Shown here: in pieces, positions 39,685 through 47,438 of the stretch | Position numbering within the stretch: the stretch's first letter is position 1 | Layout: each line of letters starts with the position of its first letter | Assembly: GCF_963921235.1 (NCBI RefSeq) | Contig: NC_086108.1 | Location: 6,820,001-6,884,000, forward strand | Source: Mobula hypostoma | Taxonomy: Eukaryota | Direction of reading: 5' to 3' | DNA length: 64,000 nt | Translations under genes and position numbers: made by a program | The notes under the pieces: model-generated | Database searches by the model: none | Told to the model about the DNA's origin: nothing | What the model saw: only the letters and a program-made list of their open reading frames with translations

Positions 39685-42530
39685 TCACGTGCCTGCTTGT
39701 GTTTACTCCACTCTTTAAGAAAGGAGGATGGTAGTAGAGAGGAAATTATAGACCAGTTAGCCTGACCTCAGTATTTGGGAAGATGTTGGAATCAGTTGTT
39801 AAGGATGAGGTGATGGAGTATTTGGTGACACGGGGCAAGGTAGTACAAAGTCAGCATGCTTTCCTTCAGGGGAAACCCTGCCTGACAAACCTGTTGGAAT
39901 TCTGTGAGGAGATTTCAGGTAGGACAGATAAAGGGAATGTAGTGGATGTTGTATATTTGGACTTTCAGAAGGCCTTTGACAAGATGCCGTACATGAGGCT
40001 GGTTACCAAGTTAAGAGCCCATGGTATTACAGTAAAGTTACTGGCATGGTTAGAGCATTGGCTGATTGATAGAGGGCAGCGAGTGGGAATTTTCTTGCTG
40101 GCTGCTGGTGATTAGTGGTGTTCCACAGGGGTCAGTGTTGCTGTATATTAATGATTTAGCTGATGGAATAGATGGCTTTGTTGCCGGGTTTGCAGATGAT
40201 GCAGAGATTGTGAAGGGGCAGTTAGTGTTGAGGAAACAGGTAGGTTGCAGAAGGACTTAGATTAGGAGAATGGGAAATGAAGTACAGTGTTGGAAAATAC
40301 ACGGTCATGCATTTTGGTAGTAGAAGTAAATGTGTAGACTTTTTTCTAAATGGGGAGAAAATCCAAATATCTGAAGTGCGAAGGGACTTGGGAGTCCTTG
40401 TGCAGAACACGCTAAAGGTTAACTTGCAGGTAGAGTTGGTGGTGAGGAAGGGAAATGCGATGTTAGCATTCATTTCAAGAGGTCTTGAATACAAGAGCAG
40501 GGATACGATGCTGAAACTATATAAAGCACTGGTGAGGCCTCACCTTGAGTATTGTGAACAGTTTTGGGCCCCTTAATCTAAGAAAAGATGTGCTGGCACT
40601 GGAGAGTGTTCAGAGGAGGTTCACAAGGATGATTTTGGGAAGGAAAGGGTTATCGTACAAGGAATGTTTGATAGCTCTGCATTGATACTCGCTGATATTT
40701 AGAAAGAAGAGGGGGGATCTCATTGAAATCTTTTGAAACCTTCCGAATGTTGTAAGGCCTAGACAGAGTAGATGTGGAAAGAATGTTTCTCTTGGTGGGG
40801 GAGTCTAGGACAAGAGGGCACAGCCTCAGAATAGAGAGGCATCCATTTAAAACAGAGATGTGGAGAAATTTCTTTAGCCAGAAGGTGGGGAACTTGTGGA
40901 ATTTATTACCACAGGCAGCTATGGAGGCCAGGTCATTGGGTGCATTTAAGGTTCTTGATTGGACACGGCATCAAAGTTTATGGGGGAAAGGGGCTGAGGA
41001 GGGGAAAAAAGGATCAATTATGATTGAATGGCAGGGCAGAAGGGCCAAATGGCCTAATTCTGCTCCTATGTCTTATGGTCTATCTATAGCCCTCATAATT
41101 TTGTAAACCTCTATCAAATCTTCTACATTCCAAGGAATATACTCCTAACCAATTCAATCTTTTCTTATAACTCAGGTCCTCCAGACCTGGCAACATTCTG
41201 GTAAATTTTCTCTGTACTCTTTCAACCTTATTTACATCTTTCCTGTAGGTAGGTGACCAAAACTGCACACAATACTCCAAATTAAGCCTTACCAACATCT
41301 TATACAATTTCAACAGAACATCCCATCTCCTGATTTATGCATTTGTAGGTGGAAGGCTTTGGGTATCAGCAACCAGGTCACTTTGCAATATTCAGTAGGA
41401 TGCCCAGTCTGCATTTTGTCCTGTTTCTGGTCACTATATGGTTTGTGACTGTGATTAAGTTCCTAGTAAATAGCAAACTCCAGTTTTCTTACACAAGAGA
41501 CAAAATATCCAAAACTGAATAGCTCTTTGTGGTAGTGCTTTTGCAAAAGTTGAAGTAACTGTTTCTGCTTGACATGCACCGTTTACTTGCTGCATTTTAT
41601 TGTCATCTGGGGATTTCTCAAATGAAAACCACTTAATACTACTTTTATACTTGGTGCACTAACTTTTTCCCCTAAACCCTCAAACTAAAAGTGATCCTTA
41701 CATAGCGAAAAATTTGCTGTGACAGTCAGTAAGTTGTGTGTTTAGATTCTTTTTATAGTGAAACGTTTCCAAAGTGACACATAAAAATAATTAAAATGAA
41801 CAATTGGCCATTGAGAGTTGGGTATAAATTTGACAAGGGTGGAAACGGGGTAGTTCTTTCTTATTTTTGCCAATTTTGTGCAAGGGACATGCCCGCTTGG
41901 AGTATTTCCCTTTCCCCTACAACCCCTCACTACCCACAGGCTCTAATGATGAGGCTTTGTAAATTGCTAGTGAGGCCTCAGCTGGAGTATGAGAGCAGTT
42001 TTTGGGCCCTTTATCTAAGAAGGGATGTGCTGACATTGGCGAGGGTTCAGAAGAAGGTTTACAAAAATGATCCTGGGATTGAAAGCTTTATCATAGGAGC
42101 GGTGTTTGATGGCTCTGGGCCTGTACTCACGGAAATTCAGAAGAATGTGGGTGGACCTTATTGAAACCTATCAAATGTTGAAACCCCTTGGTAAAGTGGA
42201 TGTGGAGAGAATGTTTCCTATGATGGAGGAATCTAAGACCAGAGGACACAGCCTCAGAATAGAAGGGATCGGGGACGTTCATTTAGAATGGAGATGAGGA
42301 ATTTCTTGAGCTTAAAAGTGGCGAATCTGTGGAATACGTTGCCACAGGCCAAGATATTGGGTATATTTAAGGCAGAACTTAGATTCATGATTAGTCAGGG
42401 CATGAAGGGATACAGGGAGAAGGCGGGAGATTGGGGCTGAGAGAAAAACGGATCTGCCATGATTAAATGGCAGAGCAGACTGGATGGGCCAAATGGCCTC
42501 ATTCTGCTCCTGTATCTTATGGTCTCATGA
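39685..42530. mobile_element. Cluster of CR1 RT/3' fragments: + about 39685-41080, - about 41080-41330, + about 41945-42530
   Basis: QHAFLQGKPCLTNLLEF, DVVYLDFQKAFDK, SGVPQGSV, FADD, LVRPHLEYCEQFWAP. Confidence 0.85.
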
Positions 42531-42724
42531 TCTTTCAGATGCTGACTTTTCTACATAACCTTTGATGCCCTTACTATTCAAGAAACTATTCAACTCTGCT
42601 TTAAATATACCCAATGACTTGACCTCCACAGCCTCTGTGGCCATGATTCCACAGATTCCACCGCCCTCTGGCTAAAGAGATGTTTGGAAGCAGCCAGTGA
42701 TATCTCTGTCCAGTTTGTAAGACT

Positions 42725-43255
42725 TAATATGAGGCCTCCGTCGGTCAGGGTTGACCATGGATGTTGCGTCCTAGCTGTCTAGATACACAAGCCAGGGCAA
42801 TGGAGAGGGAGCTGATGACCTTGTAGCAAGCTACCCCTCTCTAGGCATCTTATGAGCCCAAAAGAATGGCAGAGACTGATACCGTTTAGCGCCAGATGTG
42901 TCGCAGGAGTTGCCAGTCAGTGATGAATTCCAAGTAGGACTGCCAGCTCCAGATTTTTTTCTCTCTTGGGTTTACTCTTGAAGCCTTCCCCGGGCGTGGG
43001 TATAGCCACAAGGCAGTGGAGGTTTGAGATCAGAGCTTTCCTTCTAGATGAGCTGCCAACCGCGGCTGATAAGCCCCATCTGCCCAAAGCCAATAATCAT
43101 CCTTTGCAGCTTCTCCTGTCAGTAGAAGTGGTTCTGCCGGGCTTTGTAGTGAAGGCCAGGAACTGGAGTTGGTTGTCAGAGGCTATTTGAGATGCACACC
43201 ATTGGGTGTATTTAATAAGTACTGGGAGGTTATCCCCCGACTATAACAACCTTAA
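42725..43255 (-). mobile_element. Degenerate non-LTR-derived element (Ingi/Vingi-like, tentative)
   Basis: Reverse complement ggggcttatcagcc...ggcagctcatctagaaggaaagctctgat.tcaaacc resembles Vingi-type 5' sequence (from memory). Confidence 0.35.
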
Positions 43256-43759
43256 GGAACAACATGACATGGCTACCTTGCGCATTCACAAGGATCAAAT
43301 ACTTCAAGAAATTGTAATTGTGAAATGCTCAGGGGACTGTATGCAATTTGAGAAATTTCTGGAGATGAGACTGGGGATCATCTGATTTGATGCACTAATG
43401 CGTGAAGTGGCAAAATGAAGGTCACTAATTATGGCCAGCAATTCACCTGCAACAAATCCAAGCCAGTGGCCACATGACCGCTATTGGTGGACAGTTTTAG
43501 AACATGAGCCTGCAGTTATACGTTCTTCCCAGAAGTTGTATAAGATGTTCGTGAGGCCTAATTTGGAGTACTGTGTGCAGTTTTGGTCACCTACCTACAG
43601 CAAAGATGTAAATAAGATAGAAAGAGTACAGAGAAAATTTACAAGGATGTTGCTCTGTCTGGAGGACCTGAGTTGTAGGGAAGGATTGAAGAAGTTAGGA
43701 TTTTATAACTGGGAACGTAGAAGATTGAGGGGAGATTTGATAGAGGCATACAGAGTTAT

Positions 43760-44317
43760 ATGGGGTGTCAGGGAGGGGTAGCACCTCTGGTGGGGGAACA
43801 TGTCGTGTCCTTTTCAGGGCGGTTAGTCCACCTTTGGTCCCCACCTGGCACTCAGCTCTCACCTGTGGCTCCCCGTAGCTGTTTGCATGCGACAGCGGCC
43901 ACACCCCGGGCAACGGCTTCGACAAGCCGGCTAAACCAGGTGAGGGTAGCCGACGGGTCTCAAACCCTCGGCGAGATAGGGAGTTGTCTATCCCAGTATG
44001 TGAAGACAGACTCCGGCGGATTGAGCAGACGAAACCAATGGAAGGTCCAACGGTCAAGAAGGCGGTCTCTGCAAGCGTCGTGGAACGTGTAGAGCAGGAC
44101 AAGACACAGAAGACGTCCTGGTCATCCACTGCACCTAGTCCCATCTCCAGCTGTCTCGACTCTGTCTTGCCACTGGATCCAGATGGGAATTGGGAAGAGA
44201 GAGTGAGGCTGACGCTGCGCAACTCTCCCTCACTTAAATCCAAATCACGCGCTAGTCTCAACACCATCAATATGGTGTCGAGGTCCTCATCGACATCAAT
44301 GATGGACGAACAACAAC
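43760..44317 (+). mobile_element. Short non-autonomous non-LTR retroelement (probably RTE-derived) inserted into a CR1 fragment
   Basis: 10-bp TSD ACAGAGTTAT at 43750-43759 and 44318-44327; (CAA)n tail; CpG-rich; CR1 RT sequence resumes on both sides. Confidence 0.8.
43762..43946 (+). ncRNA. HDV-like self-cleaving ribozyme (predicted)
   Basis: P1 GGGGTGT/ACACCCC, P2 CTCTCACCTG/CAGGTGAGGG, P3 GGC/GCC, P1.1 CC/GG, P4 CGGCTT/AAGCCG, J4/2 GCTAA; G1 lies 2 nt inside the 5' TSD. Confidence 0.7.
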
Positions 44318-44866
44318 ACAGAGTTATGATGAGTTTAGGTAGGGTAAATGTAAGCAAGCTTTTTCCACTGATGTTCGGTGGGACTACAACTCGAGGTCAT
44401 GGGTTAAGGGTGAAAGGTGAAAAGTTAAAGGGGAACATGAGGGGAAACTTCTTCACTCAGAGGGTGGTGAGAGTGTGGAAGGAGCTGCCAGTGGAAGTGG
44501 TCTATGCGAACTTTATTTCAACATTTAGGAGAAGTTTGGATAAGTACATGGGTGGTAGGGGTTTGGAGGGCTATGGGCCCAGTGCAGGTCGATGGGAGAG
44601 TAGACAATTTAAGTGGCTTGGCATTGATTAAACAGGCCAAAGGGCCTGTTCCTGTGCTGTGGTCTTCAGTGTCTCTCTTTATTATACGTCTTGTATCAGA
44701 TTAGTCAAGCTATAGCAACAAGTCCTGAAGAAGTCTCTTTAGTCTTTTGTATCGTGTTTCTGTATGATTTTAAATATAATAATACCTATGCAAATAATTC
44801 TGCAAATATTAATATTCCACACCCATTAAGTTTCTGGAGAGTAATGTAATTTTTGTTTGCATAAAG

Positions 44867-45014
44867 GATATTAACAACGCCTGGCAAGGTCTGGAGCAGG
44901 CCGAAAAGGGTTACGAGGAGTGGCTACTGAATGAGATCAGGAGGCTGGAAAGACTTGATCATTTGGCAGAGAAATTCAGACAGAAAGCAACCATCCATGA
45001 AGATTGGACCAAAG
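44867..45014 (+). CDS. ACTN4: alpha-actinin-4 exon 11, 148 nt
   Basis: ataaag|GATATT...ACCAAAG|gtgatg; [49 protein letters not shown]. Confidence 0.95.
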
Positions 45015-45454
45015 GTGATGTTCCAACATATTTCAAAAGTAAATTTTATTATCAAAGTACATATATGTCAGCACATACAACCTTGAGGTTCATTTTCCTG
45101 TGGGCATACTCAGCAAATCTATGAAATAGTAACTATAACAGGATCAATGAAAGATCAACCAGTGCAGAAGACAACAAATTGTGCAAATGCAAATATAAAT
45201 AAATAGCAATAAATAATGAGAACATGAGATAAAGAGTCCTTAAAGTGAGATCATTGGTTGTGGGAACATATCAATGATGGGACAAGTGAGTGCAGTTATC
45301 CCCTTTTGTTCGAGAGCCTAATGGTTAAGGGGTATTAACTGTTCTTGAACCTGGTGGTGTGAGTCCTAAGGCTCTTGTACCTTCTACCTGATGGCAGAAG
45401 CGAGAAGAGAGCATGACCTGGGTGGTGGGGATCTCTGATGGTTGCTGCTTTCCT

Positions 45455-47438
45455 TTTTTTTTAATATAATTTTTATTGAGTTTTCAAAGTGATACATGAG
45501 AAAAAAATATCTACCCTCCCCCTCCCCGATATATACTCCTACCTAAAAAGAAAAGGAAAAAAAAGGAACTGCCTGAATATTGGAAGGTTTGCACATGCTC
45601 CATGGGATAAAAATAAATTTAGTATATATTTGTTACTTTCCCCCAAGGAACCAAGATCTTCATCATCGGAGCTATAAATAAGGGCTCCAAATATTCAAAA
45701 ATGTTACAAATTTATCTCTTAAAATCTAAAACATTACTTAGCTTCTCAACTCTGATAGTTCCCTGGGGAATCTCTTTGAACTTCACCATGTTGCTATGTG
45801 TTTCCCTCCCAACCATCCAGGCAAAAAGAAAAAAAAAGATAAGATACAAAAAAAGAAAAAACAAAATACCCCCCCCACTAATGTTGTGAATGAAAATTTA
45901 CACAACACTACCCCCCTCCATTGTGCGGGTCGTGGCTGTTGCCACGTTTGCACACATGAATAACGTAGCAATTGGTCAGTGTTTCTTCCAGCTCCCCCGT
46001 AACAAAAAATTATATATATATAGAAAAAAATTAATGTTATTATTCCCAGCTAATATTCCTCAAATTTTAACCTTTCTTCCCCTCCCTCATATAATTAATA
46101 ATATATTTATATATTCATCTGCCTAAAAATTCAACAGGCCTAATCCTTGATCCAGTCTTCATCTTCAATCCGTCTCGCTCTCCTAAGTTTGTTCTTGTAT
46201 CTGGTGAATATTCAAAGAATCTCGCACAAACTCCTCCGCTTTCCGGTAATCGTCAAAAAATCTTTTTTCTCCACCAGGCAAAAAAATCTTCAAGGTTGCA
46301 GGATAACGCAATATAATTTGATAACCGTGATCCCATAGGGCTTTTTTCACTGGATTAAACTTCTTCCTTCTTTTCAAAAGTTCATAACTTATGTCAGGGT
46401 AGAAAAAAATTTTCTTCCCTTCTATCATTAGTGGCCCTTTTCTCTTCTTGGCAGCTTGGGCAGCCGCCTGTAGAATCCTTTCTTTATCTTGAAATCTTAA
46501 GAATTTTATTAAAATTGATCGTGGATATTGGTCTTCTTGTAGTTTTGGTCTTAGAGCTCTATGTACCCGCTCAATTTCAATTGATCGGTCTTCCTCTTTC
46601 ATTTGCAAGGTTTTCGGGATCCATCTTTGAAAAAATTGTATTGGATTATCTCCCTCTGTACCTTCTTTAAGACCAACAATTTTAATGTTATTACGTCTAC
46701 TAAAATTTTCCAACACGTCCACTTTCTCCAAGAGTCGATTTCTTTCCGTGTTCCAGACAAGCACATTATTTTCTGTTTTTTCCACTCTATCGTTAATATG
46801 CTCCATTGTTCTTTCCATCTTCTGAAGTTTCTTATCCATTTTATCCTGTCTTTTCATAGCTTTATCATAGCACATCTTCACGTCTCTAAGCTCTGTTCTT
46901 AATTTTCTTAGTTCAGCCGTTAATTGCAATAAAGCCTCTCTTATGTCTCCGTCGTCTCCTTTACTTCCAGTCTCTTCCAGTTCTTCCTCCTCCTCTTCAT
47001 CTGTATTCCCTGCGATATCCAATTCTGACTCTGAGTCACTTTCAGTTGCAGTGGCCGTCGGTTCTTGTAGTTTAAATTGTGTCGATTTGCGCATGCGCCT
47101 TTCTGGCATCTTCTTCCGAGAGATCGCTACCGCCGCCATTGCTCCCCGTTCTTCTATGCCAGAGATAAAATGAGTCTCCTCTGAAGGAGATCCAACCTGA
47201 ATCCGAGGCTCCATCGCTGCAGTAGGCACTTTTTTCTTCCCATCTCGCGGCGACTTCACAACAACAGACTTCTTCTGTTGCGGTTTACGAGGCATATCGT
47301 AGAGTAGTCTTACGAAGTTTATAAATAGTTTTCGGAAACTATTTATTAACTTTACTTTGTTTAAATGGTACTTTGCTGATTTTTTACGGGAGAGCTGGAT
47401 TTACACGTCTCAATCCTACGTCATCACGTGACGCCCCC
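45455..47438 (-). mobile_element. Full-length non-autonomous L1 derivative (ORF1-only, half-L1/HAL1-like)
   Basis: 15-bp TSD GGTTGCTGCTTTCCT at 45440-45454 and 47439-47453; GGGGG 5' end; AATAAA plus poly(A) at the 3' end; intact ORF1; only a short ORF2-like C-terminal remnant. Confidence 0.88.
46183..47295 (-). CDS. L1 ORF1p-like RNA-binding protein (coiled coil, RRM, CTD), 370 aa, uninterrupted
   Basis: Coiled-coil-like segment, then ENFSRRNNIKIVGLKEG, IEIERVHR, PRSILIKFL, IFFYPDIS and LRYPATLKI, which are typical vertebrate L1 ORF1 motifs. Confidence 0.9.
   Translation of the reverse strand: MPRKPQQKKSVVVKSPRDGKKKVPTAAMEPRIQVGSPSEETHFISGIEERGAMAAVAISRKKMPERRMRKSTQFKLQEPTATATESDSESELDIAGNTDEEEEEELEETGSKGDDGDIREALLQLTAELRKLRTELRDVKMCYDKAMKRQDKMDKKLQKMERTMEHINDRVEKTENNVLVWNTERNRLLEKVDVLENFSRRNNIKIVGLKEGTEGDNPIQFFQRWIPKTLQMKEEDRSIEIERVHRALRPKLQEDQYPRSILIKFLRFQDKERILQAAAQAAKKRKGPLMIEGKKIFFYPDISYELLKRRKKFNPVKKALWDHGYQIILRYPATLKIFLPGGEKRFFDDYRKAEEFVRDSLNIHQIQEQT

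Follow-up and report, generated by a model that had tools for sequence, protein, structure and literature searches.

A (CAA)n-tailed retroelement family of Mobula hypostoma with a predicted HDV-like ribozyme at its 5' end and a hairpin in loop L3

Ribozymes resembling that of hepatitis delta virus (HDV) lie at the 5' ends of the retrotransposons R2, RTE, baggins, and L1Tc, where they free the element RNA from cotranscripts, and PMC6765202, on which this statement rests, adds that promoters are absent from the RTE and baggins elements bearing such ribozymes and that motifs of this sort serve some nonautonomous elements. Nonautonomous derivatives can keep the ribozyme of their long interspersed element (LINE), as the available portions of PMC3414825 and PMC3383444 report for the short internally deleted elements (SIDEs) of R2 and for NARTc of Trypanosoma cruzi, respectively. 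In large HDV-like ribozymes, a helix within J1/2, the segment joining the paired regions P1 and P2, brings P1 and P2 together and accelerates the reaction, according to the accessible part of PMC4908430. We analyzed a stretch of 64,000 nucleotides (nt) of M. hypostoma DNA (GCF_963921235.1, contig NC_086108.1, forward-strand positions 6,820,001 to 6,884,000; hereafter, the window), in which an intron of an alpha-actinin gene holds one copy of a short noncoding retroelement. We call its family A and predict an HDV-like ribozyme at its head. Coordinates below are those of the window unless element positions are named.

The family A head resembles the ribozymes of R2, RTE (drz-Agam-2), baggins, and L1Tc in the order of its helices, in its position at the extreme 5' end, and in the 5' processing that it presumably performs. 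Its partner LINE also looks RTE-like, RTEs being among the elements that the accessible part of PMC6765202 reports with such ribozymes and without promoters. In contrast to those systems, the bearer here is noncoding, ~555 nt long, and present in thousands of copies in an apparent vertebrate genome, and its head has a 28-nt L3 loop with a hairpin, a duplicated P1 strand, a G-C pair at the predicted cleavage site, and a sequence that Rfam models miss. With R2 SIDEs and NARTc, as far as their available descriptions go, family A shares a LINE 5' end with a ribozyme combined with the LINE 3' end needed for reverse transcription. The insertions here are dispersed rather than specific for ribosomal DNA like those of R2 SIDEs, the host here is a metazoan, and no ribozyme was recognized in the 520 nt of the partner LINE 5' untranslated region (UTR) that we read. 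Similarly to P1.2 of drz-Agam-2 in the accessible part of PMC4908430, the J1/2 of family A forms a stable helix reaching from 3 nt after P1 to 2 nt before P2 in a "pinch" geometry, but J1/2 here spans ~90 nt and its 5' strand repeats the P1 strand, which allows alternative pairing. The mammalian CPEB3 ribozyme is likewise intronic and on the sense strand of its host gene; it is a single conserved locus with a compact fold, whereas family A is a repeat family whose intronic copy in the window is truncated. Hammerhead-bearing elements resembling short interspersed elements (SINEs) and retrozymes, as the available parts of PMC6765202 and PMC7761336 present them, are also nonautonomous and reliant on a self-cleaving motif, but they carry another ribozyme class, whereas family A copies are single, tailed, and flanked by target-site duplications (TSDs), with no tandem or circular-RNA signatures. 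Full-text searches covering part of the literature returned no description of an element such as family A.

Our model folds a full-length element's first ~194 nt into a double pseudoknot of the HDV-like ribozyme type. The window copy begins at element nt 8 (window coordinate = element position + 43752) and contains the following features, in which covariation and counts of heads refer to an alignment of family A with two older sister families, B and C.

43750..43759, + strand: 5' TSD ACAGAGTTAT, from reading the sequence
43760..44307, + strand: family A copy, element nt 8-555, 5'-truncated by 7 nt
43760..43761, + strand: AU, with which the 9-nt leader GGGGTRTAT ends
43762..43768, + strand: second GGGGTGT repeat, the P1 strand of the original prediction; in full-length copies, it supplies the 5' side of the J1/2 hairpin's basal helix
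43763..43853, + strand: peripheral hairpin in J1/2, of P1.2 type, closed at its base by 43763-72 / 43844-53 and covarying in its distal part
43856..43865, + strand: P2 5' strand CTCTCACCTG, pairing with CAGGTGAGGG with one G.U
43867..43869, + strand: P3 5' strand GGC
43870..43897, + strand: L3, 28 nt, starting TCCCC, with UCC at 43870-72, the P1.1 partners at 43871-72, and the conserved G at 43875
43898..43900, + strand: P3 3' strand GCC
43901..43907, + strand: P1 3' strand (P1') ACACCCC
43908..43909, + strand: GG of P1.1
43914..43929, + strand: P4 hairpin CGGCTT-cgac-AAGCCG, a 6-bp stem with a tetraloop; among A, B, and C, covariation affects 4 of the 6 pairs
43930..43936, + strand: J4/2 GCUAAAC, containing C43931, the putative catalytic nucleotide, which is the same in all 42 heads
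43937..43946, + strand: P2 3' strand (P2') CAGGTGAGGG
44308..44317, + strand: 3' TSD ACAGAGTTAT (10 bp)

In element positions, the model pairs nt 1-7 with 149-155 (P1), 104-113 with 185-194 (P2), 115-117 with 146-148 (P3), C119 and C120 with G157 and G156 (P1.1), and 162-167 with 172-177 (P4) and places the predicted catalytic C179 in J4/2. The order P1-J1/2-P2-P3-L3-P3'-P1'-P1.1-P4-J4/2-P2' is that of the nested double pseudoknot, to which two parts are added: a hairpin of ~90 nt in J1/2 and a 5-bp hairpin after the eighth nucleotide of L3. Every stretch that the original prediction had named was found where it had been placed, and GGGGTGT (43762-68) and ACACCCC (43901-07) are indeed complementary. 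We found no support for the J1/2 stem ggtgggg/ccccacc that had been proposed, since minimum free energy (MFE) folding and pair counts favored GGUGG (43789-93) with CCACC (43828-32), where G-C occurs in 28 sequences and A-U in 12. Also within J1/2, GGGG (43775-78) pairs with CCCC (43839-42), and the 10-bp base helix between the second repeat and 43844-53 persists in families B and C with both of its strands altered.

We examined the extent of family A in the whole assembly (3.48 Gb). A 558-nt query gave 3602 first-look candidates, and the 40 of these that were scored were all 96 to 100% identical, with 38 starting at query position 1. Exact genomic matches to a 22-nt core motif numbered 3393, versus 0 for the reversed control, and 83 distinct copies were 88 to 98% identical to one reference copy. 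All 30 loci fetched through the last 120 nt contained the same element, starting at element nt 1-4 in 16, at nt 7-11 in 5, and at nt 69-392 in 9 truncated loci, one of which had a 5' inversion. A copy with an inversion (L051:1243-1642) carries element positions 178-273 inverted beside 263-569. This pattern of 5' inversion is known from twin priming in L1, and LINE-mediated target-primed reverse transcription leaves TSDs, 5' truncation, inversion, and a microsatellite tail as its traces. Family A is a ~555-nt noncoding, (CAA)n-tailed, TSD-flanked nonautonomous retroelement of the type without long terminal repeats; the copies bear out the original expectation of a dispersed family of this kind with an HDV-like fold at its 5' end. 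We detected no tRNA, 5S, or 7SL match (Rfam, window 42000-46000, E up to 10), which fits a promoterless element. Family A does not have the pol III-derived head of a SINE in the strict sense and is better named a SIDE-like element, an internally deleted LINE derivative. Sequencing runs of 11 organisms contained 10 to 62% of the element's sampled words, indicating that the family or close relatives occur in several species.

The 5' terminus of full-length copies lies 9 nt upstream of G43762; they open with GGGGTRTAT and continue with GGGGTGTCAGG. We examined 60 copies for TSDs and found duplications of at least 7 nt in 47. All 9 leader nt were present in 27 of the 47, with 9 of these abutting the TSD exactly and the rest having a few extra nt before the first G. 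Another 9 had 7 or 8 leader nt, their boundary being mostly ambiguous since the TSD ends in G, and 11 were truncated within the leader; only 2 of these 11 started at nt 10. The leader also varies in concert with the body of the element. The G/A variant at leader position 6 was linked to position 519 (A6, 15 T to 1 A; G6, 12 T to 19 A; Fisher p = 0.0004) and to position 426 (p = 0.009). Linkage of A6 to internal subfamily markers implies that the leader is inherited through the RNA template and not added at integration, and together with the TSD boundaries it implies that the copied RNA starts at nt 1.

The first 7 nt of the element RNA are the complement of ACACCCC, which lies exactly at the position of P1' in an HDV fold. 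A 7-bp P1 starting from a cleavage-site G that is also the first nt of the released RNA is thus obtained in the leader register but not from G43762. These findings most likely place the cleavage site of the family 5' of element nt 1. The original prediction had taken G43762 as the cleavage G1, which does not agree with 2 of 47 TSD copies starting there versus 27 with a full leader; the stacking of 5' ends at G1, set beforehand as a check, failed at G43762 and was seen once G1 was shifted 9 nt upstream. We also attempted to choose the P1 register by pair counts. Across 42 heads, P1' is paired in 91.5% of cells when the leader is its partner and in 96.3% when the second repeat is, a gap attributable to the A6 subfamily, and these counts gave no decision; the 5' ends and the linkage settled the register in favor of the leader.

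Within family A, we detected no covariation, as the copies are 88 to 98% alike and their shared variants are mostly CpG decay. We therefore turn to relatives. In contigs of four runs from other organisms, those of two organisms were ~88 to 90% alike overall, and among the differences listed (57 further rows of the difference table lie beyond), none fell at element 100-154 and many fell in the flanks. One loose contig end from another organism had a different L3 start, which suggested a relative with a canonical short L3. This candidate was rejected, as a matching pattern that includes GGGCAAC had 0 hits and a 21-mer from the loose end led to families that keep the hairpin. The 21-mer had 1227 matches in the M. 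hypostoma genome and a longer pattern had 394, each versus 0 for its reversed control. The sequences found with these two patterns form families B and C, two older sister families with the same head. Mean divergence from the family majority is 1.3% in A, 5.5% in C, and 12.8% in B, and all three have in common the leader, the second repeat, P2, P3, the L3 hairpin, P1', the GG, and J4/2.

We aligned 42 heads with a recognizable leader and P2' (16 of the 56 available family A copies, 13 of B, and 13 of C), leaving out three B copies with large deletions. With the 65 pairs of the HDV model, 93.6% of 2705 cells were paired, versus 38 to 49% when the 3' partners were slid. Pairs changed on both sides numbered 17 versus 7 to 10 in the slid controls and cells changed on both sides 88 versus 10 to 28, and 0 of 500 shuffles reached the observed values. 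The covariation lies in four of the six pairs of P4 (CG 17/GC 16; CG 28/UA 13; UA 16/UG 14/CG 11; GC 33/AU 4) and in distal J1/2 (GC 28/AU 12 and GC 19/AU 17). The family majority sequences have 0 differences in P1, P2, P3, P1', and P1.1, versus 10 to 17 in the 42 columns of distal J1/2 and 4 to 7 in the 16 of P4. RNAalifold, which is independent of the HDV model, also predicts the J1/2 base helix, P2, the L3 hairpin, and P4. Covariation of P1 to P4, a check foreseen in the original prediction, was therefore found for P4 and additionally for distal J1/2, whereas P1, P2, and P3 are conserved without it.

The positions that would form the active site are nearly constant in the 42 heads. U118, C119, C120, and C179 are invariant, and G123, G157, and A181 are kept in at least 90%. 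In the C-N-A-A of J4/2, C179 is present in 42 of 42 heads, A182 and the following A183 are as invariant, and N is U in families A and B and C in family C. The two P1.1 pairs are C-G in 39 and 34 of 42 heads, with the misses due to CpG decay, and the three P3 pairs form in 41, 42, and 41. The spacing U-C-C-N-N-G at the start of L3 occurs in A, B, and C, so that the first six positions are spaced as in the canonical loop and the conserved L3 U and G, the reverse-wobble partners, are both in place (U118 and G123). The accessible part of PMC3774820 states that this conserved G is important in HDV-like ribozymes.

Some loci of the older families had unusual surroundings. Two family B copies lie 846 bp apart on one strand (L091:250-340 and 1096-1187), and three identical family C heads recur at a spacing of 6946 bp (C9: 96115607, 96122553, and 96129499), which is probably a segmental tandem duplication. 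About 100 nt past one family B ribozyme (L087:470-721, minus strand), the sequence switches to a fragment resembling the GIY-YIG end of a Penelope-like element, probably a nested insertion.

A canonical L3 has ~7 to 8 nt and closes a 3-bp P3. In family A, L3 consists of U-C-C-N-N-G, two nt, a 5-bp hairpin, and then G; in the window copy, the hairpin pairs GCTGT (43878-82) with ACAGC (43892-96). The family C hairpin differs in its loop and is either 4 bp long or, counting a U.G pair, 5 bp. L3 is 26 to 28 nt long with an internal hairpin in all three families, and the hairpin is paired in 95.9% of cells. Hairpin-less forms were rare and scattered; family A had 26 shorter variants, each with a different deletion, and families B and C had 2 genome-wide matches, versus 394 to 1227 with the hairpin. 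The hairpin, which from the window copy had been suggested to define a structural variant, is thus retained throughout the superfamily. Among the first 100 core-motif matches listed, L3 started with UCCUCG in 7 and with UCCCUG in 15 instead of UCCCCG; the UCCCUG form is CpG decay.

When the terminal 120 nt of the element served as the query, all matches were copies of family A itself, and ~400 kb of examined sequence held no other (CAA)n-tailed element. A genome-wide listing of the sequences before (CAA)n tails revealed a second 3' end that recurs, present in 33 of the first 100 rows listed. One locus with this end is the end of a LINE, where an open frame closes with a C2H2 finger and a stop and is followed by a 38-nt 3' UTR and (CAA)n. 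The LINE 3' end had 627 matches at up to 2 mismatches (control, 0). Its C terminus matches a 1079-amino-acid (aa) protein at 93% identity, which contains endonuclease and reverse transcriptase domains; proteins related to it and comparable in length are numerous (81 of 184 candidates at E <= 0.001). The LINE is young and has a single open reading frame (ORF) of ~1079 aa, with the endonuclease beginning at the N terminus. At least 43 near-full-length copies are 92 to 96% identical to the 1079-aa protein, and 6 of 43 have no internal stop. This architecture of one ORF with N-terminal endonuclease and reverse transcriptase, a short 3' UTR, and a microsatellite tail fits an RTE-like LINE, as judged from the sequence. 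A third, older recurrent sequence before (CAA)n tails, about CACCACAAGGYGYGRAAAGGAA, may be another element using the same tail. Two stretches of the element align to the RTE-like LINE.

43915..44214, + strand: element 163-462, homologous to the LINE 5' UTR (219 of 314 aligned columns identical)
44272..44300, + strand: the 29 nt preceding the tail, which align with the LINE's final 26 nt

The first stretch corresponds to 300 nt of the LINE lying 650 to 350 nt before one ORF, at ~70% identity; farther upstream in the LINE 5' UTR, similarity to the ribozyme is weak. In the second, 21 of 26 nt match with a score of 30, versus 14.7 +/- 3.0 for shuffles, 1 of 2000 of which reaches it. The body resembling a 5' UTR, together with the common 3' end and tail, indicates an element built from LINE pieces in the manner of R2 SIDEs. 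With a shared 3' terminus, a (CAA)n tail, and LINE-derived sequence, family A has the features of a nonautonomous derivative of an RTE-like LINE. It belongs to an older superfamily, including B and C, that appears to derive from the 5' UTR and 3' end of an RTE-like LINE lineage. The LINE 5' UTR also contains a stem-loop, CUUGCG-AGCACGC-CGCAAG (L153:7-55), and the 7 nt of its loop are identical to those in the loop of the family C L3 hairpin.

We consider it probable that the head of family A is, in source copies, a functional HDV-like ribozyme that cuts 5' of element nt 1. An element without its own promoter would be transcribed inside host or neighboring transcripts, the ribozyme would cut just 5' of nt 1 and fix the RNA's 5' end, the LINE reverse transcriptase would recognize the common 3' terminus and the (CAA)n tail, and the RNA would be copied into a new site by target-primed reverse transcription. 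Catalysis, the site of cleavage, read-through transcription, and mobilization by the partner LINE are what we infer from the sequences of the copies and their relatives.

Several observations weigh against a self-cleaving head as modeled. No Rfam HDV-type model reached its threshold in the region, the best being HDV-F-prausnitzii at 13.2 bits versus a gathering score of 44 (E = 3.8), and RF00094 found nothing genome-wide; the J1/2 and L3 insertions probably prevent a match. The core helices P1, P2, P3, and P1.1 never covary, so that only their conservation speaks for them, and this constancy is partly by construction, as the anchors of the B and C searches were the P2 5' strand, P3, the L3 start, and P2'; stretches outside these anchors are free of that selection bias. 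The L3 hairpin has one doubly changed cell only, and an alternative P3 of GGC with GCU (43878-80) may form instead, with a canonical 8-nt L3 and a 20-nt insert between P3' and P1'. HDV-like ribozymes usually have a G.U wobble at the cleavage-site pair, whereas this pair is G-C in 30 of 42 heads and G.U in 9, the latter where a CpG has undergone a C-to-T change. In the A6 subfamily, to which 16 of 51 leader-bearing copies belong, the leader P1 contains an A.C mismatch that no other change compensates; in this subfamily, either a perfect P1 is unneeded or the efficiency of cleavage does not limit the element. P1' pairs slightly better with the second repeat than with the leader. Finally, the 520 nt of LINE 5' UTR, beyond which the LINE 5' boundary lies, yielded no recognizable HDV-like fold and no Rfam match.

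These points could instead reflect a structured 5' domain that does not cleave itself, a relic of the LINE 5' UTR kept for protein binding, RNA stability, or internal promoter activity, in which case transcription would initiate at nt 1 and so define the RNA 5' end, and the resemblance to HDV would be vestigial or inactive. The absent Rfam match, the 28-nt L3 in place of 7 to 8 nt, the G-C pair, the tolerated A.C mismatch, and the readable part of the LINE 5' UTR without a ribozyme all agree with such a domain, as does the invariance of element positions 21-39 and 81-91 in J1/2, which exceeds the needs of a helix. We nonetheless judge it unlikely, since the HDV active-site positions (U-C-C-N-N-G, the GG after P1', and C-N-A-A) are all rightly spaced and invariant or nearly so while the peripheral helices around them drift and covary, the first 7 nt of the RNA exactly complement the stretch at the P1' position, and Rfam detected no pol III-type head. 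If the head does cleave, the second GGGGTGT repeat (43762-68) could be its natural P1 strand, with a cut before G43762 releasing the 9-nt leader. The repeat's better pairing with P1', its indifference to the A6 variant, and its status as the only P1 strand left in the window copy favor this register, which is nevertheless improbable given that full leaders so outnumber starts at nt 10, that the leader variant is inherited with internal markers and productive RNAs were therefore not cut at nt 10, and that the repeat is engaged in the 10-bp helix with 43844-53, which B and C retain with both strands changed. That the fold reflects chance complementarities in a GC-rich repeat seems to us very improbable. 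The MFE z-score is only -1.79, with 9 of 200 shuffles folding as well in a program that cannot model pseudoknots, and the descriptor that matches only the 43760 site on both strands of the window carries limited weight, having been written after the site was seen. However, that descriptor had 0 matches in 2.56 Mb of Markov sequence of window composition and 1 in 2.56 Mb of ribozyme composition, the reversed-pattern controls were all 0, and conservation and covariation extend across three families of different age.

A functional ribozyme cutting 5' of nt 1 in source copies, as we favor, would bear on how this class is found and studied. HDV-like ribozymes have usually been found by descriptors or covariance models that fix L3 at 7 to 8 nt, and to our knowledge few have come from vertebrates, namely CPEB3, R2 elements, and a hit in lamprey. 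Such descriptors and models pass over a family with a helix in L3, as Rfam's miss here illustrates, and if this head is active, the class tolerates an insertion beside the active site and the searches have a blind spot. On the sequence evidence, the HDV-like ribozyme-headed retroelement is real; its novelty lies in the structural variant, as ribozyme-headed retroelements were already known. More than 3000 copies in three successive subfamilies form a natural mutational series for structure-function work, and the element, if the proposed mechanism is true, would be a clear case of a promoterless nonautonomous element dependent on host transcription, with possible effects on host pre-mRNAs. A broader reading is tentative and, in our estimate, rather doubtful: a new HDV-like subclass with a duplicated-P1 switch, in a promoterless superfamily parasitizing an RTE-like LINE in several species, with intronic copies that cut pre-mRNAs. 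In such a subclass, P3 may continue across an 8-nt/1-nt internal loop holding the active-site L3 residues into a second helix, the RNA may switch from an active fold, in which the leader forms P1 and the repeat belongs to the J1/2 helix, to alternative folds and back, and thousands of sense-oriented intronic copies could cut host pre-mRNAs.

The window copy itself spans 43760-44307 on the + strand and ends in CAACAAC. The TSD and tail of the insertion were confirmed, but its length is 548 bp rather than the 558 bp given originally, which counted one TSD copy. Compared with other copies, it has lost the first 7 nt of the leader, likely the true P1 5' strand, and keeps only the second GGGGTGT repeat, which must leave the 10-bp J1/2 helix to form P1. 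The window copy is therefore probably a weak or dead ribozyme, and the loss of the true P1 strand makes cutting of host pre-mRNA by this copy doubtful; that it can still cut the actinin pre-mRNA in its truncated form strikes us as possible but not likely. The original prediction was thus right in kind, wrong in register, and optimistic about this copy. The remaining features of the locus are the following.

44257..44282, + strand: 3' palindromic stem-loop ACACCAT..ATGGTGT
44301..44307, + strand: (CAA)n tail, short in this copy, CAACAAC
44858..45014, + strand: alpha-actinin exon on the strand of the element, limits approximate, from a translation match

The translation of this exon, ~550 nt downstream of the element, matches alpha-actinin (1sjj, E = 3e-27) and is 95% like the alpha-actinin of a bird, placing the element in an intron in sense orientation. 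The intronic sense placement that had been proposed stands, and the host is identified as an alpha-actinin gene, a level short of the paralogue and intron number (ACTN4, intron 10) named originally. The element is nested in an older LINE fragment (43419-43759 and 44318-44631, + strand), whose open frame, reading ..LEYCVQFWSP.. before the insertion, resumes across it as ..TRGHGLRVKG..FFTQRVV...

Stop-free frames run through the whole element on both strands, with 233 codons at 43695-44396 (- strand) and 250 codons at 43879-44631 (+ strand); the one family C copy read lacks an ATG for the + frame. Farther along the window, a 405-codon open frame at 46183-47400 (- strand), which we presume to be an L1-type ORF1 from its resemblance, is followed by no long ORF2 in 45100-46183.

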